25,897 bases of DNA from an uncultured Candidatus Saccharimonas sp. Lineage in GTDB: Bacteria > Patescibacteriota > Saccharimonadia > Saccharimonadales > OMJO01. The position numbers and the translations under genes are program-made. The stretch covers positions 1 to 25,897 of the forward strand of contig CAYIDS010000001.1 of NCBI GenBank assembly GCA_964362185.1, read 5' to 3'. The notes beneath the pieces are model-generated. The model ran no database searches. It was not told the origin of the DNA and saw nothing but the letters and a program-made list of their open reading frames with translations. This document shows, piece by piece, positions 2,423 to 22,750 of the stretch. How positions within the stretch are numbered: the first letter of the stretch is position 1; each line of letters starts with the position of its first letter.

Positions 2423-3670
2423 TCAGGCCGCCAGTGATAGCTGATCAGCAGATTGAGGGAAGGGATTATCCGCGAATTCGGGGTGATCCACTCGCCACTG
2501 TTTAAGCGGATCTGGTATTTGCTGTCCTACCTCACCGGCATCTCTTAAGGCTGCCAACAAGGTGGCTTCACCACCCCTCGCGCTGGCTATGCTAAGACAA
2601 CTGGGATATGCGACAAATTCTAGATCAGGGCGTTTAGGGGGCAGTATCTCTAAGGGGATATTAAAATCTGCCGCCCTGGCTATGATCTCCGGGTACAAAG
2701 CTTGCGCTGGGTTGTCTGCTGTTCCGGGGATAAGCACACAATGTGCAACATCATATACTCGGTTGTAGGTAGTGTCATCGTCGGGAGTGTCATTTGGTTC
2801 GAACCGCCCTATGTGAAAAAGTAATGATACGCCGCGGCGAAGTTCCACCATGTCATTTGGCCCTATCCAGCTTTTCTTTTCTTCACTAACATCGTTAACA
2901 ACCAGACCTTCTAAACCTTTAATTTCTTTGGCTGATGCCAAAAATTCTGCAGTAATATCCTTCCACGAATCAGCTATCGTAAAGCACATTTTGTATTCTC
3001 CGTCCTTAGACGTTCTGGTAGTCACGCCGATTCTGCCATCTGGCAGTCCGACATAACGTACGCCCTTGGTTCCTTCGTCGGACTCAACCAGACGCTCTAA
3101 TTTATCAAGGTTGCCGCCAATTGCAGTAACGGATTTAAACGCACTGCCCTGTGTGGGGTCGTTTGGATCATTGGGCTTAACCTCTACCCAGGTAACTACC
3201 CAGTTGCCTTTTACATAAGAAATAGCTGGGTCTTGAGCAATCTGACCTGCTGTTAACTCCGACAAATTCGAGATTGCAGCAGGGTAACAATCCCTGCCAT
3301 CTTCACTGCATTGGTAAATGGCAAGCTTGGAGGTAAATTCTCCCCCAGCGCCAATTTCTTCCTCTCGGACTAGCATATGCGGTATTTCGCCGACCTTAAA
3401 CATTTTACTGGCGTTATATACGGATATGCCTGGCGGAAGTTCGTGAAACTCCACAGGCCATGCATCGGACTCTGGTTTTTCGTATCGTTCCAATAAATCA
3501 TCTATTGATTCCGCCCCCATAACAGGATCAACTTCTTGTCCTTCTACAAAACCGTCTAACAACATGACACCTCCTAAATTTTCTAACCCTAACCGTACCA
3601 CGTCGTCTACTCGATCTGTATGCATCGAGCCGAATTGTTCTATATCTTTTTGTTCAATGGTTGCACTCAT
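2423..3670 (-). CDS. DUF1861 / MTP-1 (GT108/GH130-like five-bladed beta-propeller) protein
   Basis: Ordered motif matches recalled for DUF1861: VYN.S..F, QDP, KGVRYVGLPDGRIGVTTR, WIGPND, HIG, EIIARAADF, KRPDL. Confidence 0.6.
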   Translation of the reverse strand: MSATIEQKDIEQFGSMHTDRVDDVVRLGLENLGGVMLLDGFVEGQEVDPVMGAESIDDLLERYEKPESDAWPVEFHELPPGISVYNASKMFKVGEIPHMLVREEEIGAGGEFTSKLAIYQCSEDGRDCYPAAISNLSELTAGQIAQDPAISYVKGNWVVTWVEVKPNDPNDPTQGSAFKSVTAIGGNLDKLERLVESDEGTKGVRYVGLPDGRIGVTTRTSKDGEYKMCFTIADSWKDITAEFLASAKEIKGLEGLVVNDVSEEKKSWIGPNDMVELRRGVSLLFHIGRFEPNDTPDDDTTYNRVYDVAHCVLIPGTADNPAQALYPEIIARAADFNIPLEILPPKRPDLEFVAYPSCLSIASARGGEATLLAALRDAGEVGQQIPDPLKQWRVDHPEFADNPFPQSADQLSLAA

Positions 3671-3901: not shown

Positions 3902-4588
3902 ATGGTCACTAGTTTATTCAAACACAAAGTATACAAAGCAAAAAATGAGCAAAAAATCCTGTTCTTTTTTCCCGCCGGGTTTACAAAATTATGGTGGTAC
4001 CACTTTACCTTTAATTTTCTGAACCGAAAAAACATTACGGTTATAGCGTTTGATCTAGATTGGCATCGAGCAGTTAGTGAACTCGATCCAAACAAGTTAC
4101 ACCGACTACTAGATGATATTAATGAGATTGTTGAAAAAGTTCAAAATGATCATTCAAATGTTACTGAATACTCAGTTTTTGGCACAAGTTTTGGAACAGT
4201 TATTGCTCTGTACATAGCCAAAAAACACAAAAACATCCAATCAATTATTCTAAACATGCCTTATGGAACTATCGCGCACCTATTATGGACGCATAAACCT
4301 TCTAGGCCATTCAAAGATCACGCTATCGCTAGCGGTCTTGATACCGAGTTTAAATTACACACGGCATTAATGCCCATAGAGACACAGGCGAATTTAGAAA
4401 TATTGTCTGACCGAAAGGTAGTAAATTTTACGGCACTAAACGACAAGATTGTTTTTGATGGTCGAGATTTCGCAAATGCTTTAAGTAAAACTAATACCTC
4501 GGCTATTTTCCATGAGACACAATTTGGTCATTTTTGGGGCGGGATAGAAAACATTCTTTCTAAACGCAAGTGGGATTCCATACTCTAG
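3902..4588 (+). CDS. Alpha/beta-fold hydrolase
   Basis: Nucleophile elbow GTSFG, candidate acid in NDKIV and His in GHFWG, in the expected order. Confidence 0.8.
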   Translation: MVTSLFKHKVYKAKNEQKILFFFPAGFTKLWWYHFTFNFLNRKNITVIAFDLDWHRAVSELDPNKLHRLLDDINEIVEKVQNDHSNVTEYSVFGTSFGTVIALYIAKKHKNIQSIILNMPYGTIAHLLWTHKPSRPFKDHAIASGLDTEFKLHTALMPIETQANLEILSDRKVVNFTALNDKIVFDGRDFANALSKTNTSAIFHETQFGHFWGGIENILSKRKWDSIL

Positions 4589-4773
4589 ACACGCATTTCG
4601 CACTTAGCCGTTGATGCTAGGTTGCAACTAGGACGAGAGCGAAAGCTTTTAACTCGAGCAAAGCATAACTATTCAAAATATCCGTTCATCATCCCTATTC
4701 TGCAATCATAAGCCCGAAATTAATATGGTATCCTTACCATAAGGATGTTGTATGTGATGTTTGGGTGCTGTCA

Positions 4774-5679
4774 ATGACAAAACATAAAAATAAGCCTAGT
4801 CAAGGCAAGTCCGTAAGGTTTATTCTTTTAGGGCTGGTCGGCTTGGGGCTGATCATTGCAACAATGTTGCGTGGCAGTGACGTTGTGCTGTTAAACCCAA
4901 AGGGTGCGGTAGCCGGGGAGCAGCTTAAGCTGATGATATTTTCGGCGACCCTGTTGTTGACAATTGCTGTCCCGACTTTGTTTTTCTTATACTTTTTTGC
5001 CTGGAAATATAGAGAATCTAATGAAAAGGCTATGTATAGCCCACATGCCCGTCATGGCAAATTCTTTGTACTTAGCATGTGGGCGATTCCAACTGTTTCT
5101 ATAGCGGTGCTGGCAGTCGTTATGTGGTCGGCTACCCTTAAACTTGAACCTCAGAAACCAATCGCTTCTAATGCCAAGCCTCTCATTGTTCAAGTAGTGG
5201 CTTTGCGCTGGAAGTGGCTCTTTATCTACCCTGAGCACAACATTGCCACCATTAATTATGTTCAAGTTCCTACCGGTATCCCGGTGCAATTTGAGCTAAC
5301 GGCCGATGAGGCACCAATGAGTTCGTTCTGGATTCCTCACCTGGGTGGTCAATTATACGCGATGACTGGGCATTCGAATCGGCTGAATCTTATTGCCGAT
5401 ACACCGGGCGACTACCCAGGCAGATCGGCCGAAATAAACGGCGCTGGCTTTGCCGGAATGAAGTTCATAGCACGCGCTAGTTCAAAAGAAGATTTTGCTC
5501 TATGGATACAAGATGTGCGACTAACTTCAGCAGTACTTGATTGGGCAGGATATGAAAAGTTGCTTAGGCCAAGTGAGTACAACCTTGCCGAATTCTACGC
5601 CATGGCCGAAACAGACTTATATGATAAAGTGCTTATGAAATACAGGGGGTCTCACGACCACAACACGGGGCAAGAATGA
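4774..5679 (+). CDS. cyoA: Cytochrome bo3-type quinol oxidase subunit II
   Basis: LLNPKG, AWKYR, WKWLFIYP, MSSFWIPHLGGQLYAM, SAEINGAGFAGMKF. No CuA Cys motif, so it is a quinol-type subunit II. Confidence 0.95.
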   Translation: MTKHKNKPSQGKSVRFILLGLVGLGLIIATMLRGSDVVLLNPKGAVAGEQLKLMIFSATLLLTIAVPTLFFLYFFAWKYRESNEKAMYSPHARHGKFFVLSMWAIPTVSIAVLAVVMWSATLKLEPQKPIASNAKPLIVQVVALRWKWLFIYPEHNIATINYVQVPTGIPVQFELTADEAPMSSFWIPHLGGQLYAMTGHSNRLNLIADTPGDYPGRSAEINGAGFAGMKFIARASSKEDFALWIQDVRLTSAVLDWAGYEKLLRPSEYNLAEFYAMAETDLYDKVLMKYRGSHDHNTGQE

Positions 5680-7766
5680 AACAGCAACTCATCGGTAAAT
5701 TAAACCTGCACGCTCTGCCACACGAGTGGTTTACTATCGGCGGCACAGTTGCCCTTATCGGAATGATGTTGGTTGTTGCCATAGTTATTACGCGCAAGAA
5801 ACGCTGGAAATGGCTATGGAACGAGTGGCTGACCTCAGTTGATCCAAAGAAGATCGGCATAATGTATTTTATTGTGGCCGGATTTATGCTCCTACGGGGT
5901 GGGCTGGATGCGATGATGATTTGGCTCCAGCAAGCGCTGTCGGCTGGATCTTCGCATGGTTTCCTCTCAGCTGACCACTTTCAGCAAATTCTTACTGCTC
6001 ATGGAAATATCATGGTTTTCTTTGTAGCCATGGCCTTTATTTTTGGGCTCATAAACTACATCGTGCCATTGCAAATTGGCGCACGAGATCTGGCTTCGCC
6101 TTTTCTGAACACCTTGGGTTTTTGGCTGTTCGTGGCTGGTGTAGTAATGGTAAATATGTTCTTTCTACTTGGCGGAGAGTATGCTGCGACCGGCTGGCTG
6201 GCCGTTGCGCCGCTGTCGAGCAAGCAATTTAGCCCAGGCGTAGGCGTTGATTATTGGATATGGAGTTTACAGATTTCTGGTATTGGGACGACACTGGGCG
6301 CAATAAACTTTATTATGACAATTCTTAGAATGCGCGCTCCTGGAATGACCCTATGGAAAATGCCTTTGTTTACCTGGGGATCCCTGTGCAGTATGATTAT
6401 GGCAGCAACCGTTTTCCCACTCCTTACAGCTACACTTTTCCTGGTGTTTTTCGATCGGTATTTAGGCACGCATTTCTTCACCACCGACTTGGGAGGTAAC
6501 GCTATGATGTACACCAATCTCATCTGGATGTGGGGACACCCGGAAGTGTATATTTTAATGCTGCCGTCATTTGGTGTGTTTTCAGAAATAGTTTCAACCT
6601 TCAGTCGAAAGCGCGTTGCCAGCTACTTGTCTAATGTATGGGGTATGATTGGTGTCTCGACGCTAGCGCTTTCGGTGTGGCTACACCATTTCTTCACTAT
6701 GGGCGCCGGCGCGAATGTAAACGCATTCTTCGGGGTAATGACGATGGTGATTGCGATACCCACGACTGTACTGGTGTTTACCTGGATTGCCACGATGTAC
6801 AAAGGTCGGATACGGTTCGGTACGCCGATACTGTGGTTTCTTGGATTCATTGGCACATTCGCGATTGGCGGAATGACAGGTGTAATGTTGGCTGTTCCAC
6901 CTGTCGACTTTCAATTGCACAATAGTTTGTTCCTGGTGGCACACTTTCACACTATGGTTATAGGCGGGGTGGTCTTTGGTGTATTCGCCGGGATATCGTA
7001 CTGGTTTCCGAAGATAGCAGGATTTAGGCTCAACGAACGGATTGGCCGATATGCTTTTTGGTGCTGGCTAATTGGATTCGTCATGGCCTTTGCTCCGCTC
7101 TATGTGCTTGGGCTTATGGGAGCCACCAGAAGGCTTGATCACTACGACTCCTCAACTGGTTGGCAGCCGTTTTACGTCATGGCACTCATGGGAGGGATTA
7201 TTATCATGATTGGTGTCGCTCTCCAAATTGTTCAAATTATTGCTAGCTTTATTCAAAGAAGGCAACTGGTTGACACTACCGGTGATCCATGGGATGGGCG
7301 TTCACTTGAGTGGTCAACAGCTTCACCACCACCATCGTACAATTTTACCGTCATCCCCCATGTTATGTCTCGTGACGCATACTGGGAAATGAAACGACTG
7401 CATATGCCAAAGCGTTCCTACGAAGACATCCTTATCCCCAAGAATACAGCTTCAGGTATTTATATTTCTGCCTTCGCCTTTCTAGTTGGCTTCGGCTTCG
7501 TTTGGGAGATTGTCTGGCTGGTTGTCATGTCAATAATTGGCATAATAGTTTGCGTAGTTGCCCGAACCTTTAATGAACATACCGAATATACTCTCACGGC
7601 TGACGAGGTAGAAAAGCTAGAGGCGACCCGAGCCAAAAAAGCCGCTACCACGCACGCGGATAAGGATGCAGACTCGGGTGAGGACATGGGTCTGCTGGAA
7701 TTTGTCAAGTTTGTGGTTGTGTGGGCACGGAATTTTGTAAGGAAAAAACAATGGCGCACTCGGTAA
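5676..7766 (+). CDS. cyoB: Cytochrome bo3-type quinol oxidase subunit I
   Basis: Heme and CuB ligands present (TAHG, GHPEVY, WLHH, AHFH), as are the quinol-site R/D (LLRGGLD) and H/Q (DHFQQ). ATGA overlap with cyoA. Confidence 0.97.
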   Translation: MKQQLIGKLNLHALPHEWFTIGGTVALIGMMLVVAIVITRKKRWKWLWNEWLTSVDPKKIGIMYFIVAGFMLLRGGLDAMMIWLQQALSAGSSHGFLSADHFQQILTAHGNIMVFFVAMAFIFGLINYIVPLQIGARDLASPFLNTLGFWLFVAGVVMVNMFFLLGGEYAATGWLAVAPLSSKQFSPGVGVDYWIWSLQISGIGTTLGAINFIMTILRMRAPGMTLWKMPLFTWGSLCSMIMAATVFPLLTATLFLVFFDRYLGTHFFTTDLGGNAMMYTNLIWMWGHPEVYILMLPSFGVFSEIVSTFSRKRVASYLSNVWGMIGVSTLALSVWLHHFFTMGAGANVNAFFGVMTMVIAIPTTVLVFTWIATMYKGRIRFGTPILWFLGFIGTFAIGGMTGVMLAVPPVDFQLHNSLFLVAHFHTMVIGGVVFGVFAGISYWFPKIAGFRLNERIGRYAFWCWLIGFVMAFAPLYVLGLMGATRRLDHYDSSTGWQPFYVMALMGGIIIMIGVALQIVQIIASFIQRRQLVDTTGDPWDGRSLEWSTASPPPSYNFTVIPHVMSRDAYWEMKRLHMPKRSYEDILIPKNTASGIYISAFAFLVGFGFVWEIVWLVVMSIIGIIVCVVARTFNEHTEYTLTADEVEKLEATRAKKAATTHADKDADSGEDMGLLEFVKFVVVWARNFVRKKQWRTR

Positions 7767-8350
7767 CAGCAGAAGATAACAAACACGAAGAAGCCGCGAC
7801 TGACAGGACCATGTTTGGCTTCTGGATCTATTTAATGACTGATCTTTTGATGTTTGCGGTGTTATTTGCGGTGTATGCGGTTTTGCGTGGCAATACCATG
7901 AGCGGCCCATCAGGCCGTGAACTCTTTAGTCTCCCACTGGCTTTGACCGGAACGCTAATTCTACTTACCAGCAGTTTTACTTGCGGGCTCGGAATGATTG
8001 CCGCCAGACGAGGCAACAAAAACCAAGTCCTCGTGTGGTTCGGCATTACATTCATACTAGGCTTGGCGTTCTTGGGCTTAGAGCTAAAGGAATTTACCGA
8101 GCTTATACATGAGGGCCACACTCTTGCCAGCAATGCGTTTCTGTCCTCATTCTTTGCGTTGGTTGGTACGCACGGGCTCCATATTATTTCGGGGCTGCTG
8201 TGGATAGCGATAATTCTGGCATTCGTCTTTGTTCGGGGCCTTAACTCGCACATGGTACGGAAGTTGACCTTGCTGAGTCTGTTCTGGCACTTCTTAGATA
8301 TAGTGTGGATATTTATCTTTACAATTGTGTATTTAGGGGCATTCGTATGA
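7751..8350 (+). CDS. cyoC: Quinol oxidase subunit III
   Basis: FGFWIYLMTD, LLTSSFTCG, LVGTHGLH, FWHFLDIVW. ATG 7751 is preferred over the ORF-track start at 7721. Confidence 0.95.
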   Translation: MAHSVTAEDNKHEEAATDRTMFGFWIYLMTDLLMFAVLFAVYAVLRGNTMSGPSGRELFSLPLALTGTLILLTSSFTCGLGMIAARRGNKNQVLVWFGITFILGLAFLGLELKEFTELIHEGHTLASNAFLSSFFALVGTHGLHIISGLLWIAIILAFVFVRGLNSHMVRKLTLLSLFWHFLDIVWIFIFTIVYLGAFV

Positions 8351-8440
8351 GTCCCGTTAGACTCCAGAAGACGGCTGTATCTAGTAGTACGACTGAACAC
8401 GTGACAGCTTTTCAGCCGTTCAGTGATAATAGAAAGTTAA

Positions 8441-9127
8441 GTGGAGTCTAACGGGATGAGCAAGACAAATAGCGAGCACGGTACTATGCTGTCTTATGTA
8501 ATTGGATATATTTTGTCTTTGGTGTTCACATTCATACCTTACTATATGGTGGTCAATAAAACCGCTTCTGGTACTGCATTACTTGCAACAATTCTTGGAT
8601 TTGCGGTTTTTCAGATGATCATCCAGATACTATTCTTCCTACATTTGGGACGGGAGCCAAAGCCGCGTTATAACCTAACATTCTTCATTGCAACGGTTAC
8701 TATCATTCTGGTAGTAGTAGGGGGCTCCTTGTTCATCATGAGTCATCTTTACGATAATATGACACCAACAGAGGTGACTAAAAAGCTTGCTCAAAACGAG
8801 GGTATCGATCAGGTAGGTGATGAGAAGACAGGTGCTTGCCAACAGCTTTATATTAATCACAAAGTAATTATTGCCAACGGCAAGGTAAGTCCCATCAATA
8901 CCGAAGCAGGCCTTTGCGACACCCTAACATTCCTCAACCAAGATGATAAAGTGCGCGTTATTACGTTCGGAACGCATCCAGACCATAAAAATTATGCCGG
9001 GCAGACTGATCAGTCAGTGCGTAAGGGACGAGGTAAGTCGATAACACTTAATCAGGAAGGTACTTATCAATTCCATGATCATCTTGATCCGGGGGTAACA
9101 GGGTATTTTACTGTAAAGTCGCGGTAG
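8441..9127 (+). CDS. cyoD: Quinol oxidase subunit IV fused to a C-terminal cupredoxin-like domain
   Basis: N-terminal ~110 aa: YVIGYILS, QILFFLHL, GSLFIM (CyoD). C-terminal ~95 aa: VSP...GLCDTLTFLNQD...GTHPDH...GTYQFHDHL, a cupredoxin-like pattern. Alternative start ATG 8456. Confidence 0.85.
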   Translation: MESNGMSKTNSEHGTMLSYVIGYILSLVFTFIPYYMVVNKTASGTALLATILGFAVFQMIIQILFFLHLGREPKPRYNLTFFIATVTIILVVVGGSLFIMSHLYDNMTPTEVTKKLAQNEGIDQVGDEKTGACQQLYINHKVIIANGKVSPINTEAGLCDTLTFLNQDDKVRVITFGTHPDHKNYAGQTDQSVRKGRGKSITLNQEGTYQFHDHLDPGVTGYFTVKSR

Positions 9128-14340: not shown

Positions 14341-17300
14341 ATGCTTTTTGGTGGGCAGAAAGCTTGGTATAGATTGTCAGAAGCAGAACAGGCTGAAGGA
14401 TTAATAGAGCCCTTTGCTGGAGCTATAAGCCCAGTTGCCCTTTTTACGGAGGGCGATGTTGCTAACATATATTTCAATGAACGATCTAGGTTTTCGCCTT
14501 CAGATAAGGCGCTAGATAGTAATCTAACTCCTGTTGGCGTAGGTAACCACTTTGAACTTTGGCAAGTCCTGACTACTCCAGCTGCTGATGCTGAAGGAAT
14601 CTTAGGCCGACAAGAGATAATTACTTGGCTGATAGATAACCCCGATACAAGCGCAGAGCTAGGCGGATTAAGTTTCGGCGCCGCAAGACTTAAAGACGAT
14701 TTAACCAACTTTGTTAACGCCAGATATGAAGCAGTACATGGTGAGATAGAGGATGACAGCCGTTCCGCTAGGCGGCATCGTGGAGAACAACGAGAAAAGG
14801 TTGATCCCGAGGTCGCCAAACAAACCTATACTGATACTTTGGCGACTTCTAGGGCGTTGGCCGATCAATTAACTACCTGTGAAGAGCCTTTCTTGCAGGC
14901 TTGTGGCTCTAGCTTAAAAGCTGTCTTGGAACAAGCAGGCCCAGAGTTGGAGCCCAATAACGTTGACCAACGAGTTATTACTAACAAATTCGAGCCCTTT
15001 GATCCAGTAGTCAAGAAAGCAACCGCTACAGTTACTCAACAAGCTAAAGAAACCAGTGCCTTTCCAGTCTTTGCATCTCACGCCCAAAGAGAAGGCTTTG
15101 TGAAAGTTGGACTGACCGATGATGCCAGTGCTCAAACACTTGGCGGTATGTGGAATCTCAAATTCGAACGGACTAAGCGGAACTGGGGAGGAGATGAAGA
15201 ACCAGCTCAAGTTGCTAACGACACCCCTATATCCCGACCGACTGTTTTACTTACTGGCAATAACGCTTCTGGCAAAACCTTTCATCAAGAAGCTCGATTG
15301 TTTGCCCAATTAAGCGCCCAATCTTTTGGCTATGCACCGGCTGAGACGGCAGTTATACGACCCGTTCGTAACATTGCTGTTCTAGAGCGAGCCCGAACGG
15401 ACGCCGCAAATGAACTCAGTGCTTTTGGTTCTGAGGTTAAGACCTTAGCTCGTGCCTTAGCTACTGTAGAAGAATTTGGTGAAGATACGCTGGTTATTAG
15501 TGACGAAGGTTTTTCTACTACCTCACCAGAGGACCAGGCTACGTTACTTTCAGCTACTCATGCATGGCTAAGGAAAAACGGCGCAGCCATTTTAGCAGCT
15601 ACTCATAACGAAGACTATGTAGATTTAGTTGAGCAACAAGACCCAGACGCTTTATTCCATTTCCCATACGATAGTCAAACAGACCGTTATTCTCATGAAG
15701 TGACCTTGGTGCCAACCTTTCGTTTAGAAGCTGGTAAAGACGATGCTCACGCTATCGAAGTTGCTAAACGATATGGGCTTAATCAAGACATACTTGATCG
15801 AGCAGGTCAGTACCTAGAAGGTGGCATAGAACCGGTTGAATTGCCCAATAGGCGCTGGAATCGTATAAAAGCAATGCATCCTGATACCAGGAGACAAAAG
15901 TTACAAGATAGTGCATCAACTCGAGCCTTATACCTGTTTGCTAATTATTCGATAGCCGACAAAGTGGAGATTAGAACCTTCGACTTTGACTCAACAGAGA
16001 CCCGCACCGTGGTAAGAAGTTTTATTGATGACTCTCGCCACGATACGGATGGGTTACGTAGTGCAGTAAGACAAAAAACTATGGCTAGCGATATACGAAC
16101 CCGGGATCCTATATACATATATAGCGGCAATACCTATGGTTCTGGTCAGATATATGCATACGACAGGACTGTTACCAATTTCACCCTTGGCGGAGAAAGG
16201 TCGCAAGGCAATCAGTTTATTGATGAGTTCTTAGTTACTGGTGCCGTTTTTAATCCTGAAGAAATAGCCGAACGCCAGCAACTCTTTACTGAGCTTATTG
16301 ACCCCGAAAAAAGAGCTAAGGTAGAAGAAGCTTTACTTGAACTTACTCATGTATATCACTGGGCAACGGCTGAGCATGGCGACTACGGATGGCATGAGGG
16401 AGACTTCATCTCAGAAGTATTAGTTGAATTTTTAGATAATGTAGCCGAATCTGGCTCTCGAAGTCCCCTCGCCATAAGGGTAGCTGCTAGTTTGGCACGT
16501 TGGCAGGCTGAAGAAAGGGGCGACGACAGTCTTTTAGCTAGCGCAATACAACTAGGGGCCATCGCTGATGGTCAAGAAGCTCGACGTTTAGAGCATGATG
16601 CTCTAAGAGACCAAGATGATAGCTCCGAACGCTTATCAGGGCTTGAGCGTCAGAGGAGAGTAATAGATGGCAATAATATTACTATCGCTCTTGCAATATC
16701 ACTTGGCCTTGAAGGTTTTGAGTTAATTGAACTAGATGCTGAGCTTGAACTTGAGCAGTTTATAGAAACCTACCATCTTGTAGACGCTGCACAGAACGCC
16801 ATTAATTTGCATATGCAGACGCTTGTTGGCCAACTAAAAGATAATTTTGAAGGTCGTGAACAAGCTATCGATGAGATAGATTTTGAAGCCCTATCTCACC
16901 ATAGTTCGGAACTGAGAGAGCGTATCCTTGCTCTTCAAGCAGAAACTGGTATAGGATCTTTTTCTTTTATGCATTTGCCGAATCGTCTTAAACAATTGAT
17001 TTTCTTTGCCGATAAAGAACCTCGGGCACAACGAGCAGTTGAGGCGCTTCGCTCAATTGACTCTGTACATATGCATAATCTCGCTAATCACTTTGAGGGT
17101 TTATTGGCGGCACAAATGGAAGGCCAACCAACGGGCTACGACTGTGGCGTGCTACTCAAAGAACGTCTACGAAAAATGAAAGAGTCACGCGAAAGACTGT
17201 GGAGTCATGACGAAAACCAATATCTATTTAGTGGCCTTAACTATAACCACACTTTGACAGGTGAGCTATTTAGAGCTCGATCAATTGTTGATCTGGCTGA

Positions 17301-17994
17301 GGCTATGGACACACAGCGATACACTCCGGTTCACTTTAATGACACTGGAGCTATAAACGTTGTTGGGGCACGTAATATCAACAAAGGTGTTGATGACCAG
17401 GAAGCTAACGACTTTGTGCTAAACCCCAAAGGTCAGCTCCATATCCTGACCGGTGCCAATATGAGTGGCAAGACTTTTCACTTAAAACAGATATTATTTA
17501 ATCAGCTGATGGCACAGTCGACTGGATATACTGCCGCTGTGAGTAGTGACGTACCGCTATTTAGTAAGATTATCTACTATGATAGGCCAGCCAATGAAGA
17601 AGGTCGGGATTTAAGTGCTTTTGCAACGGAAGTTACCCAGTGGAATAGGATGTTGAAAGAGCTTGAGGGTAAGAAACGGGCATTGGTTATAATCGATGAA
17701 CCCTTCTCGTCTACTTCGCCCAGGTATCAAGCTGCTCTAACTTTTGCACTAGTCGAACATCTCATGACTAAAGGCCACACTGTTGTTATGGCCACTCATC
17801 ATCACCAGCTAGCCGACAAATTAAAGGATATGTACGGTGAGGCTACTGATTTAGCTCATTTTGAGATAAATAAAGAAGGGGACGAGGTTACTTTCTCTCA
17901 TAAGAAGCAAGAAGGCCACGCTCCCTCTGATGCTATAGCTGTTGCTCGTTCTTTGGGCGGGTCTATTATGCGGCGAGTTCTGGAAGGGCTATGA
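14341..17994 (+). CDS. Tandem double MutS-family ATPase (1217 aa)
   Basis: Two complete MutS-V motif sets: GNNASGKT / LSAFGSE / SDEGFSTTS / ATH / AIEVAKRYG and GANMSGKT / LSAFATE / IDEPFSSTS / ATH / AIAVARSLG. Each set is preceded by a lever-like I..RQ motif. No mismatch-recognition or Smr domain seen. Confidence 0.85.
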   Translation: MLFGGQKAWYRLSEAEQAEGLIEPFAGAISPVALFTEGDVANIYFNERSRFSPSDKALDSNLTPVGVGNHFELWQVLTTPAADAEGILGRQEIITWLIDNPDTSAELGGLSFGAARLKDDLTNFVNARYEAVHGEIEDDSRSARRHRGEQREKVDPEVAKQTYTDTLATSRALADQLTTCEEPFLQACGSSLKAVLEQAGPELEPNNVDQRVITNKFEPFDPVVKKATATVTQQAKETSAFPVFASHAQREGFVKVGLTDDASAQTLGGMWNLKFERTKRNWGGDEEPAQVANDTPISRPTVLLTGNNASGKTFHQEARLFAQLSAQSFGYAPAETAVIRPVRNIAVLERARTDAANELSAFGSEVKTLARALATVEEFGEDTLVISDEGFSTTSPEDQATLLSATHAWLRKNGAAILAATHNEDYVDLVEQQDPDALFHFPYDSQTDRYSHEVTLVPTFRLEAGKDDAHAIEVAKRYGLNQDILDRAGQYLEGGIEPVELPNRRWNRIKAMHPDTRRQKLQDSASTRALYLFANYSIADKVEIRTFDFDSTETRTVVRSFIDDSRHDTDGLRSAVRQKTMASDIRTRDPIYIYSGNTYGSGQIYAYDRTVTNFTLGGERSQGNQFIDEFLVTGAVFNPEEIAERQQLFTELIDPEKRAKVEEALLELTHVYHWATAEHGDYGWHEGDFISEVLVEFLDNVAESGSRSPLAIRVAASLARWQAEERGDDSLLASAIQLGAIADGQEARRLEHDALRDQDDSSERLSGLERQRRVIDGNNITIALAISLGLEGFELIELDAELELEQFIETYHLVDAAQNAINLHMQTLVGQLKDNFEGREQAIDEIDFEALSHHSSELRERILALQAETGIGSFSFMHLPNRLKQLIFFADKEPRAQRAVEALRSIDSVHMHNLANHFEGLLAAQMEGQPTGYDCGVLLKERLRKMKESRERLWSHDENQYLFSGLNYNHTLTGELFRARSIVDLAEAMDTQRYTPVHFNDTGAINVVGARNINKGVDDQEANDFVLNPKGQLHILTGANMSGKTFHLKQILFNQLMAQSTGYTAAVSSDVPLFSKIIYYDRPANEEGRDLSAFATEVTQWNRMLKELEGKKRALVIIDEPFSSTSPRYQAALTFALVEHLMTKGHTVVMATHHHQLADKLKDMYGEATDLAHFEINKEGDEVTFSHKKQEGHAPSDAIAVARSLGGSIMRRVLEGL

Positions 17995-21136: not shown

Positions 21137-22750
21137 GTGGCTGAAAAATATTTTCTTTACGCAAGGAAATCAACTGACGTTGAGGATAAGCAAGTTTTGT
21201 CCATAGAGGCACAATTAGCAGAACTACGTAACTATGCAAAACAAGAAAACTTACAGATTATTGAGGAATTAGTAGAAAAGCAATCAGCTAAAATACCAGG
21301 TCGCCGAATTTTCGGCGAAATGCTTAAACGCATTGAAGCTGGCGAAGCCAGTGGTATTTTGGCGTGGCACCCCGATAGACTTGCCAGAAACTCCATTGAC
21401 GGTGGACAGATAATCTACTTACTTGATATGGACAAAATACAAGCCCTAAAGTTCCCTAGTTTTTGGTTTGAAAGTACATCACAGGGCAAATTTATGCTTA
21501 GTATTGCTTTTGGACAATCCAAGTATTATGTAGACAACTTAGCTGAAAACACTAAACGAGGTTTACGCCAAAAAGTAAGACGAGGCGAATACCCTAGCCA
21601 TGCACCTATTGGCTACATAAACGATACTAGAAACAAAACAATTGTCGTGGACAAACGGCGTTCACTGATTGTCCGACAGGCATTTGAGCTGTACGCCAAA
21701 AACAATAGCCGATTAGAAGACATAGCCAACTTTTTAGCTAAGAACGGCATAAAGACATCTAGTGGTAAAACATACAAGAAAGACCGCATATCTTTCATGC
21801 TTGCTAACCCCTTTTATTACGGCCATTTCCGCTACGTTGGCGAACAGTATGAGGGTAAACACACACCAATCATCACGAAGAAACTATTTGACCAAGTACA
21901 GGCAGTGCTAACGCAGCGTGGCAAGCCACGCAAGCACCCGTGCAACCAGCCAAAGGCTTTTTGTGGTTTATTAGCCTGTGGTAGCTGTGAAATGGGTGTA
22001 ACTGCTGAAAAACAGAAAGGCCATGTGTATTATCGCTGTACGAGGAAAAGCAAAGCCATGAAATGTATTGAGCCTTATGTTCGTGAGGAAGAATTAGACA
22101 ACCAACTGTCTGACTTGCTTATAAGCTATTCAATGCCTAATGATTGGGCGCAGGACTTGCAAGCCAGATTAGCCAAAGACGAGCAAAAGAATCAAACTGC
22201 CTCTGGTGTGTTTGTGGCTAATGCCCAAACAAAGATTCAGAGTTTGCAAAGCAAACTCCAACGACTTCTTGACGGCTATTTAGACCAAGATATTGACCGA
22301 GATACCTATGTAGAAAAGAAAGCTGAGCTGATGAGTGAAAAGAAGTCATTGGAGGAACAATCTTCCAAGCTAACGCTTGCCAATACAAGTTGGCTCGAAC
22401 CATTCAAAGAATGGATTACAGAGGCTTCTAGCCTTCGTAATGTCGCCAAGTCTGATGACTTAACCGAAAAGAAAGCCAAACTTCGTAAAATCTTTGGCTC
22501 GAACCTCATTTTATCCAACAAAAAAGCACAGCTTCGCTACCCTGAAGCTCAGAAATCCCCCCTTGAAAAACATTGGACGGCACTCCGTGCCGCCCTTCAA
22601 AATTCTTCTGAAAACCCAAAAAGTTTCAAATTGGCTGGGAGTGAGGGATTCGAACCCCCGAATGCCAGGACCAGAACCTGGTGCCTTACCACTTGGCCAA
22701 CTCCCAATAATGCGTATCTAACAGGGGAGATTGTAGCAAACATTGGGTAA
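21137..22750 (+). CDS. Large serine recombinase (resolvase + recombinase + Zn ribbon + coiled coil)
   Basis: YARKST catalytic Ser, DRLARN, NLAENTKRGL, P.GY, CGSC...YYRC...C. GGAGG SD before the GTG. The last 37 codons are read from the antisense tRNA and its upstream region. Confidence 0.95.
   Translation: MAEKYFLYARKSTDVEDKQVLSIEAQLAELRNYAKQENLQIIEELVEKQSAKIPGRRIFGEMLKRIEAGEASGILAWHPDRLARNSIDGGQIIYLLDMDKIQALKFPSFWFESTSQGKFMLSIAFGQSKYYVDNLAENTKRGLRQKVRRGEYPSHAPIGYINDTRNKTIVVDKRRSLIVRQAFELYAKNNSRLEDIANFLAKNGIKTSSGKTYKKDRISFMLANPFYYGHFRYVGEQYEGKHTPIITKKLFDQVQAVLTQRGKPRKHPCNQPKAFCGLLACGSCEMGVTAEKQKGHVYYRCTRKSKAMKCIEPYVREEELDNQLSDLLISYSMPNDWAQDLQARLAKDEQKNQTASGVFVANAQTKIQSLQSKLQRLLDGYLDQDIDRDTYVEKKAELMSEKKSLEEQSSKLTLANTSWLEPFKEWITEASSLRNVAKSDDLTEKKAKLRKIFGSNLILSNKKAQLRYPEAQKSPLEKHWTALRAALQNSSENPKSFKLAGSEGFEPPNARTRTWCLTTWPTPNNAYLTGEIVANIG
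22632..22706 (-). tRNA. tRNA-Gln(CTG)
   Basis: TGGGAGT/ACTCCCA acceptor, GCC-AAGTGGTAA-GGC D-arm, CCAGG-ttCTGgt-CCTGG anticodon arm, GGTTCGAATCC T-loop, G-CCA end (75 nt). Confidence 0.97.

Follow-up and report, generated by a model that had tools for sequence, protein, structure and literature searches.

Lysine 362 of subunit I (K362 in Escherichia coli CyoB numbering) is among the textbook essential residues of A-family heme-copper oxidases; whether it acts as a proton conduit, as a charge gate or as both is under debate, and studies of it have relied almost entirely on crippling point mutants. In the A-type oxidase of Paracoccus denitrificans, Table 2 of Sousa et al. (2011; PMC3084760) assigns Lys354, Thr351, Ser291, and Tyr280 to the K channel, and Asp124, Asn199, Asn113, Asn131, Tyr35, Ser134, Ser193, and Glu278 to the D channel. 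Soil and groundwater bacteria of the Candidate Phyla Radiation (CPR) carry cyo operons for such enzymes, yet according to passages of two studies they must scavenge quinone and heme (Starr et al., 2018, PMC6031116; PMC8407418), and a passage of a third describes CPR cyo genes as acquired by transfer from other bacteria (PMC7507113). The stretch of DNA analyzed here over its whole length of 25,897 nucleotides, referred to below as the window, comes from a Saccharimonadales (CPR) bacterium and carries a cyo operon in which the K-pathway lysine is replaced by leucine. The described enzyme with which it is best compared is the cytochrome bo3 quinol oxidase CyoABCD of E. coli (PDB 1FFT, 6WTI).

A complete quinol oxidase of the bo3 type (A family), with four subunits and maintained by selection, is encoded in the window. 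Four adjoining genes on the forward strand (4765-9127) were recognized with NCBIfam and Pfam as cyoA, cyoB, cyoC, and cyoD of a cytochrome o/bo3-type quinol oxidase; every reading frame is intact, and both the set of subunits and the gene order are those of E. coli. CyoB, whose identity to E. coli subunit I is about 60%, matches 1FFT chain A over residues 6-650 (HMMER, E 5.4e-244), the Bacillus aa3-600 quinol oxidase with an E value of 2.4e-192, and ba3-type enzymes with E values of about 4e-8. CyoA matches 1FFT chain B (HMMER, E 4.4e-68) and, like subunit II of E. coli, has no CuA ligands. In contrast with E. coli, CyoB and CyoA stay under the NCBIfam equivalog cut-offs (955.2 bits against 1020.35 for CyoB on TIGR02843, 251.9 bits against 266.2 for CyoA on TIGR01433), cyoE lies outside the operon, and the proteins carry two additional segments, a C-terminal extension of CyoB and a cupredoxin-fold domain fused to CyoD.

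The window CyoB has leucine at the position of K362, and CyoA has valine at that of E89, the entry glutamate of the K pathway. Site equivalence was established from ungapped HMMER alignments to the 1FFT chains, in which positions were counted along the alignment; that of CyoA is ungapped from residue 41 past the E89 site. It was re-derived from MAFFT alignments with the E. coli K-12 proteins translated from NC_000913, and the two methods agree on both substitutions, which had been proposed in a first-pass annotation of this DNA. Proper alignment thus does not restore Lys and Glu at these sites, where Leu and Val stay opposite K362 and E89, and the E. coli CyoA and CyoB strings that the annotation had quoted are identical to the tool-derived ones.

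Most of the remaining catalytic machinery is kept, as had also been noted for the D channel (N124, D135, E286), the cross-link tyrosine, the six histidine ligands and the quinol-site Arg, Asp, His, and Gln, all of which are found in place in the MAFFT alignment. The window CyoB retains the equivalents of H106, H421, H419, H284, H333, H334, Y288, D135, N124, N142, and E286, those of the upper K-path hydroxyl residues S299, T352, and T359, and all four quinol-site residues (R71, D75, H98, Q101); the metal ligands, the cross-link tyrosine, the D-pathway acids and asparagines and the quinol-site residues are the same in E. coli bo3. Compared with the A-type K channel, the lysine is thus replaced by leucine, with the threonine (T359), the serine (S299), and the tyrosine (Y288) present. 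The D channel is intact for the most part but not entirely, the equivalents of D135, N124, N142, Y61, T201, T211, and E286 being kept and S145, which we equate with Ser134 of P. denitrificans, being replaced by glycine.

The same pattern recurs in relatives with leucine at the K362 column, hereafter called Leu-type. Invariant in all 73 Leu-type alignment rows are the redox ligands, Y288, D135, N124, N142, E286, T352, and T359, and S299 is kept in 66 of them. At the quinol site, R71 is found in 72/73 rows, D75 in 63 (Glu in nine), and Q101 in 61 (Glu in 11). H98 is present in 72 rows, the remaining one having a gap, versus 9/13 in the canonical Saccharimonadales clade described below, and E14 is kept in 65/73 versus 0/13. 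T359 is also kept in 19 of 21 rows of the Gln-type, which has glutamine at the K362 column. In the Leu clade, the canonical K pathway for protons is dismantled, at the sequence level, in its lower half, with K362 fixed as leucine and the entry glutamate unconstrained.

The distribution of the two substitutions was surveyed in 61 genomes of the same order, i.e., that of the window and 60 others, 27 of which have a subunit I. Leucine occupies the K362 column in all of 16 loci whose CyoB is 72-82% identical to that of the window, and the six histidine ligands of the heme-copper binuclear center are present in the window and in all 16; their E89 column has Val in eight, Asp in two, Ser in two, and Glu, Ala, Gly, and Leu in one each. 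Another 13 loci of the order, with 56-62% identity to the window, have Lys at K362 and Glu at E89 without exception. These canonical operons share the host order and the operon layout of the window, keep R80 and S145 as well, and encode a short CyoD. Among the best 120 clusters at 90% identity, the K362 column has Leu in 116, Ile in two, Val in one, and Lys in one, which is an E. coli-like outlier. Another 51 non-duplicate loci with Leu or Val came from a scan of species-representative genomes and brought the total to 67; most of them are labeled Saccharibacteria or Saccharimonadales, in agreement with the Saccharibacteria/CPR origin supposed in the first-pass annotation. All six leucine codons are in use at that column (53 regex-matched loci, eight of them duplicates).

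The substitution of Leu for Lys, which requires two bases to change and has become fixed throughout a large clade, is not a matter of chance. Pairs of cyoB genes in the Leu clade have proportions of nonsynonymous differences (pN) of 0.083-0.116 against proportions of synonymous differences (pS) of 0.70-0.80. The corresponding pN of the canonical paralogs is 0.115-0.214, which indicates that selection on the Leu type is no weaker; synonymous divergence (dS) is saturated (pS 0.66-0.86), and the few ratios of nonsynonymous to synonymous divergence (dN/dS) obtained, 0.03-0.13, are unstable. The proposal that the losses are clade-wide rather than random decay is thus borne out by the 119 of 120 best relatives with Leu, Ile, or Val, by the 67 loci and by the low pN relative to pS. 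Nor do close relatives keep the canonical pair, as the Leu-type relatives are without Lys and rarely have Glu at E89 (1/65). That the lysine-less variant is a real, conserved feature is well supported.

Loss of the lysine extends beyond the Saccharimonadales. Glutamine is found at the K362 column in the operons of other Patescibacteria (labeled Levyibacteriota, Doudnabacteria, Paceibacteria, Microgenomates, and Parcubacteria) and in some metagenome-assembled genomes labeled Gammaproteobacteria, which are 1.2-1.7 Mb in size and have one subunit I each. The 101 further database relatives of one Gln-type protein have Gln in 77 cases, Leu in 14, and Lys in one, and nine fall outside the search pattern. 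The CyoB of one Gln-type locus (L101) scores 969.8 bits on TIGR02843, also under the cut-off of 1020.35.

Trees rooted on aa3-type sequences were obtained by quick searches under LG+G4 and a C20 mixture model, with Shimodaira-Hasegawa-like approximate likelihood ratio test (SH-aLRT) values as their sole measure of support. In these trees, the lysine-less sequences form a single clade (SH-aLRT 100), within which the Leu-type clade of the Saccharimonadales (100) arises from among Gln-type lineages. The sister group of the entire lysine-less clade is the canonical Lys/Glu clade of the Saccharimonadales (98; support for the sister relationship, 99 under LG+G4 and 93 under C20), and the more distant quinol oxidases all have Lys. 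A first tree had suggested that the Leu type arose by direct duplication from the canonical Saccharimonadales type, a scenario that was revised once Gln-type sequences showed the Leu type to be nested in a Gln-type grade. The codons observed at the K362 column are AAA/AAG, CAA/CAG, and the leucine set, and the simplest path would lead from Lys (AAR) through Gln (CAR) to Leu (CTR), with one base change per step and with the change from Lys to Gln on the stem of the wider clade.

The two losses had initially been described as concerted and compensated, which is not borne out. Glutamate persists at the E89 column in 9 of 21 Gln-type loci, indicating that the lysine went first and that the entry glutamate decayed after it, not jointly with it. 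In the 65 Leu-type loci with a CyoA, Val is the commonest residue at this column, Glu occurs once and Asp five times. The drift of E89 looks like relaxed constraint once the lysine was gone rather than compensation.

When the window 5676-7766 was compared with loci L002, L003, L007, L010, L013, and L015, its CyoB turned out to resemble copies from other families of the order more closely (82 and 81% identity) than those of its own family (74-77%). The operon may thus have been transferred within the Saccharimonadales, or the family assignment may be imprecise.

Other changes accompany the loss of the lysine, as revealed by comparing 96 lysine-less rows (including eight duplicate loci) with 14 Lys-type rows. 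In CyoB, the two sets differ at exactly two positions of conserved charge, K362 and R80; the buried positive charge of R80 has given way to tryptophan in the lysine-less enzymes. We take R80 to be equivalent to R38 of the bovine enzyme and R54 of the Paracoccus enzyme, which adjoin the low-spin heme. Of 120 representatives of diverse A-family oxidases that cover this position, 118 have arginine there, which makes its loss as unusual as that of the lysine. Further changes that distinguish the window from E. coli bo3 are shared by the whole lysine-less clade, Gln-type included: S145G at the D-pathway serine, S159F and L160F in helix III, A281M beside a CuB ligand and S209E in CyoA. The first-pass annotation, correct as to K362L and E89V, had overlooked the loss of R80 and S145G, as well as the CyoD domain and a second, canonical operon. 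Concerning the S209 position of CyoA, glutamate is found in all lysine-less loci checked except L100, which has Asn, as does the canonical Saccharimonadales clade; this glutamate presumably corresponds to the Mg-site Glu located within the CuA motif in cytochrome c oxidases.

Yet other features are restricted to the Leu type, namely G360 replaced by Ser, Thr, or Ala, F311A, F165Y, Asn at position 108, and the CyoB extension of about 40 residues, which Gln-type enzymes lack. The extension has conserved acidic and glycine positions as well as an amphipathic segment with a tail of basic residues; its positions are conserved in 14-16 of the 16 Leu-type loci and correspond to gaps in all 13 Lys-type loci. 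The coordinates of the features are collected in Table 1.

Table 1. Positions in the window of the oxidase genes, of the additional segments and of individual residues (E. coli numbering for the equivalent sites).
Feature	Position	Strand	Basis or remark
cyoA, subunit II	4774..5679	+	Open reading frame opens with GTG at 4765; ATG at 4774 likely start
cyoB, subunit I, 696 amino acids	5676..7766	+	Open reading frame; match to 1FFT_A
cyoC, subunit III	7721..8350	+	TIGR02842, 237.8 bits, above cut-off 223.75; likely ATG a few codons into the open reading frame
cyoD part, subunit IV	8441..8761	+	TIGR02847, 88.7 bits, above cut-off 81.45, residues 13-107
cyoD, whole open reading frame including the extra domain	8441-9127	+	
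Cupredoxin-fold domain fused to CyoD C-terminus	8762..9127	+	Predicted outside the cytoplasm
CyoB C-terminal extension, about 40 amino acids, Leu-type-specific	7638..7763	+	Alignment to E. coli CyoB
Leu366 at CyoB K362 (K-pathway lysine), codon CTG	6771..6773	+	HMMER alignment to 1FFT_A, no gaps near the site
Val102 (Val99 from ATG 4774) at CyoA E89 (K-pathway entry glutamate), codon GTA	5068..5070	+	
Thr363 at T359 (upper K-pathway threonine), codon ACG	6762..6764	+	Kept
Trp83 at R80, codon TGG	5922..5924	+	Trp in 95/96 lysine-less rows; Arg in 14/14 Lys-type rows
Gly148 at S145 (D pathway), codon GGT	6117..6119	+	
Gly208 at T204 (D pathway), codon GGC	6297..6299	+	Gly is the general A-family consensus
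Met285 at A281, between two Trp ahead of CuB ligand H284, codon ATG	6528..6530	+	
Ala372 at F368, helix VIII, cytoplasmic side of the K362 position, codon GCC	6789..6791	+	Ala common in other A-family enzymes

The genome bin from which the window comes has a size of 743 kb and is 88.9% complete. It also contains a canonical cyo operon (G000:C60, locus L028, 9-4236) on a contig of 4.2 kb, with Lys at K362, Glu at E89, and a CyoB that scores 1045.1 bits on TIGR02843, above the cut-off. This genome is the only one of the 27 oxidase-bearing genomes to have both types; the composition of contig C60 fits the bin, and the operon may come from a co-binned relative. In 15 of the 16 Leu-type genomes, no other subunit I was found with the window query, and the Leu type is thus usually the sole heme-copper oxidase found there. 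A different arrangement is seen in one relative (G007:C4, locus L029), in which cyoB of the canonical type is present twice, one copy having an in-frame TGA inside the match.

The single UbiA-family gene of the genome (contig C156), away from the operon, encodes a heme O synthase (NF003348, 333.3 bits, cut-off 285), and an NDH-2-like gene is present. No MenA- or UbiA-type quinone prenyltransferase, no cytochrome bd and no catalase were found in this 88.9% complete genome. The inventory fits the published views of quinone and heme scavenging and of gene transfer. Three rows of DNA sequencing runs, all from one groundwater study, contain all or part of the stretch.

On balance, and with moderate confidence, the window enzyme would be a working quinol:O2 oxidase that supplies protons to its active site without the lysine. 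Present are the residues expected to ligate hemes b and o3 and CuB, to make the His-Tyr cross-link and to hold quinol, as well as those of the D pathway apart from S145. The enzyme would oxidize scavenged quinol and reduce O2, and protons might reach the binuclear center either by the D pathway with E286 or along water that fills what is left of the K path below T359. The turnover would probably be modest, and the enzyme might serve an ultrasmall epibiont to consume O2 and energize the membrane. There is a precedent for proton delivery of this kind, since the B-type oxidases, such as ba3 of Thermus thermophilus, and the C-type oxidases use a K-analog pathway that is free of lysine, according to Table 2 of Sousa et al. 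(2011; PMC3084760). In contrast with the window enzyme, in which most of the D pathway is kept and leucine replaces the lysine, B-type enzymes lack the D pathway and have polar residues in place of the lysine.

Several points weigh against a working oxidase. Leucine is hydrophobic, whereas B-type enzymes have threonine at the K362 site. Laboratory K362M, K362L, and K362Q mutants of the Rhodobacter sphaeroides aa3 and E. coli bo3 oxidases carry the same kind of uncharged replacement at the same position, and those of E. coli bo3 are inactive. Likewise, a passage of PMC7601700 (citing Vygodina 1998) describes the K362M oxidase of R. sphaeroides as fully inhibited as an oxidase. The laboratory mutants are single changes in a canonical enzyme, whereas in the window lineage the change is ancient, fixed and found beside other clade-specific changes. 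No gain of charge is visible in CyoB, in the sense that no column of the compared rows has at least 85% K/R/H/D/E in the lysine-less set and at most 15% in the Lys-type set; a relocated lysine or another compensating charge was thus discarded as a candidate, and nothing visibly compensates for the loss of the lysine. T204G and F368A were similarly rejected as special adaptations, Gly and Ala being merely the general A-family consensus at these positions. Finally, no RNA run is listed that contains the stretch, which is silent on expression.

The lysine-less enzyme might instead behave like the laboratory K362 mutants, with a very slow reduction of the binuclear center, and serve a fermentative epibiont as a low-rate O2 scavenger or detoxifier that has no compensating proton route and conserves little or no energy. 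The lack of a compensating residue in CyoB, the drift of the entry glutamate and the finding of heme O synthase as the only UbiA-family gene would be in keeping with such a role, as would the proposal, made in passages of two CPR studies, that cyo operons are an adaptation to oxic habitats in bacteria without quinone synthesis (PMC8407418; PMC6031116). However, the carboxylates and asparagines of the D pathway are invariant, as are E286 and the upper K-path hydroxyl residues, and pN/pS is no higher than in the canonical paralog, whereas more drift would be expected in the pump machinery of a mere scavenger. A slow scavenger is considered rather unlikely.

It is improbable that the enzyme performs the 'peroxidase half' of the cycle only, with quinol reducing H2O2 rather than O2 and the D pathway delivering all the protons. 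For their peroxidase activity, known oxidases require H2O2 in the millimolar range, and the active-site ligands of the window enzyme are those of O2 reductases, both of which argue against this possibility. In its favor, the D pathway is largely intact in the window enzyme and catalase was not found in the 88.9% complete genome. Moreover, the K362M mutant of R. sphaeroides is described as devoid of oxidase activity with its peroxidase activity intact, because the peroxidase phase uses the D channel only (passage of PMC7601700).

Similarly improbable is that the enzyme takes electrons from a donor other than quinol, the cupredoxin-fold domain of CyoD being a new electron-entry or metal-handling module and the proton-path changes accompanying a changed reaction cycle. 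The CyoD part proper has three predicted transmembrane helices (residues 16-39, 45-69, and 75-105). The domain of about 120 residues that follows the third helix is inferred to be outside the cell, since the loop preceding it is basic. Its match to PF13473 (Cupredoxin_1) is under the cut-off (E 5.8e-4, 20.3 bits against 27), and the assignment comes from its predicted structure, a cupredoxin beta-sandwich according to both Foldseek and the ESM Atlas. Amicyanin and plastocyanin models of the ESM Atlas match it with TM-scores of 0.67-0.69, and the best Foldseek match in the PDB for the AlphaFold model of CyoD is amicyanin 2idq (E 5.7e-8, TM-score 0.68 by target). The predicted local distance difference test (pLDDT) score of the model is 69 for the whole protein and 77-90 in most 10-residue blocks of the domain.

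The cupredoxin fold speaks for such a module, and the matches found by Foldseek include AcoP, a cupredoxin of Acidithiobacillus ferrooxidans that associates with a cytochrome c oxidase. CyoD proteins of 222-233 residues with the domain are encoded in 51 of the 54 Leu-type loci that have CyoD, in contrast with none of the 20 Gln-type loci, whose CyoD proteins have 110-145 residues. The invariant residues of the domain include two Cys, one His, one Asn, and one Asp. However, the Cys-x-His-x-Met loop of type-1 copper sites is absent from the domain: C133 and C159 sit early in it, and its C-terminal loop has His, Asp, and His without Cys or Met, these histidines not being invariant. The conservation of the quinol-site residues R71, D75, H98, and Q101 also speaks against another donor. 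As the Gln-type enzymes lost the lysine without having the domain, the two features are not tied to each other.

Reduction of nitric oxide (NO) or of another substrate than O2, which had been raised as an alternative by the first-pass annotation, is very improbable and the least likely of the rival functions. The heme-copper superfamily does include NO reductases with altered proton pathways (PMC11214002). Their motifs, as given in a passage of PMC3084760, are H-X-(aromatic)-X-E and H-H-X-(aromatic)-(aromatic)-X17-E, and they have no cross-link tyrosine. In contrast, the window enzyme has His-Pro-Glu-Val-Tyr in helix VI, which misfits the first motif, the CuB histidines and Y288 are invariant, and no glutamate cluster of the NO reductase type has been gained. 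As for a pseudogene, strain-specific decay, or a sequencing or assembly error, four intact frames, a two-base substitution common to 119 of the 120 best relatives and strong purifying selection leave next to no room for it.

How unusual the loss of the lysine is among A-family oxidases was estimated from the best 150 representatives at 50% identity that match the window CyoB (P0121-P0270; best match, 48% identity). The K362 column is covered in 147 of them and has Lys in 94, Gln in 21, Leu in 11, and other residues in 21, i.e., 53 are lysine-less. The novelty of the window enzyme is tempered by this frequency of lysine-less A-family sequences in databases. Variants and losses of the K channel are discussed for archaeal family A oxidases in passages of PMC8239418. 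For CPR bacteria, passages of Starr et al. (2018; PMC6031116) credit subunit I with 'some functional residues' and, with reference to a supplementary figure, speak of a 'discrepancy in the functional residues'; a description of lysine loss in CPR cyo oxidases was not found in the main texts searched, the passages of PMC6031116, PMC8407418, and PMC7507113 being silent on it.

The 147 representatives also comprise a well-supported clade with mostly Gln at the K362 column, whose members mostly have about 780-860 residues, the length of COX1-COX3 fusions, and have largely lost N124 and N142, the asparagines of the D pathway. Subunit I of a third kind was noted in a genome of the same family as the window (locus L030, G010:C24, 6418-9613); it is 39% identical to that of the window and has Trp at E286 and Ala at K362. 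It groups with representatives of about 830 residues, which include at least one COX1-COX3 fusion.

Most cyo copies sampled here are non-canonical bo3 enzymes, and the Leu clade constitutes a natural test case, in which K362 and R80 are missing and the entry glutamate is drifting, yet most of the D pathway and the catalytic center are kept. If the enzyme is active, it would show which proton route replaces the lysine and which accompanying changes permit the replacement. A broader, rather doubtful proposal would be that a CPR-wide lineage of the A family works without the K-pathway lysine and without the arginine by the low-spin heme, as a proton-pumping oxidase that uses the D pathway only or as a proton-motive quinol:H2O2 peroxidase. 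If that were true, nature would already have run the experiment that mutagenesis of K362 could not. The Leu clade also bears on the purpose of cyo operons in ultrasmall, quinone-less and largely fermentative CPR bacteria.

Elsewhere in the window, genes for a DUF1861 protein (2423-3670, reverse strand) and a small alpha/beta hydrolase (3902-4588, forward strand) are directly upstream of the oxidase operon. A 1217-residue protein is encoded at 14341-17994 (forward strand), its sole Pfam match being MutS domain V at the extreme C-terminus (residues 1035-1203), which leaves roughly its first 1000 residues without an assignment. Farther downstream, a large serine recombinase with Resolvase, Recombinase, and zinc-ribbon domains (21137-22750, forward strand) hints at an integrated mobile element in that part of the contig.

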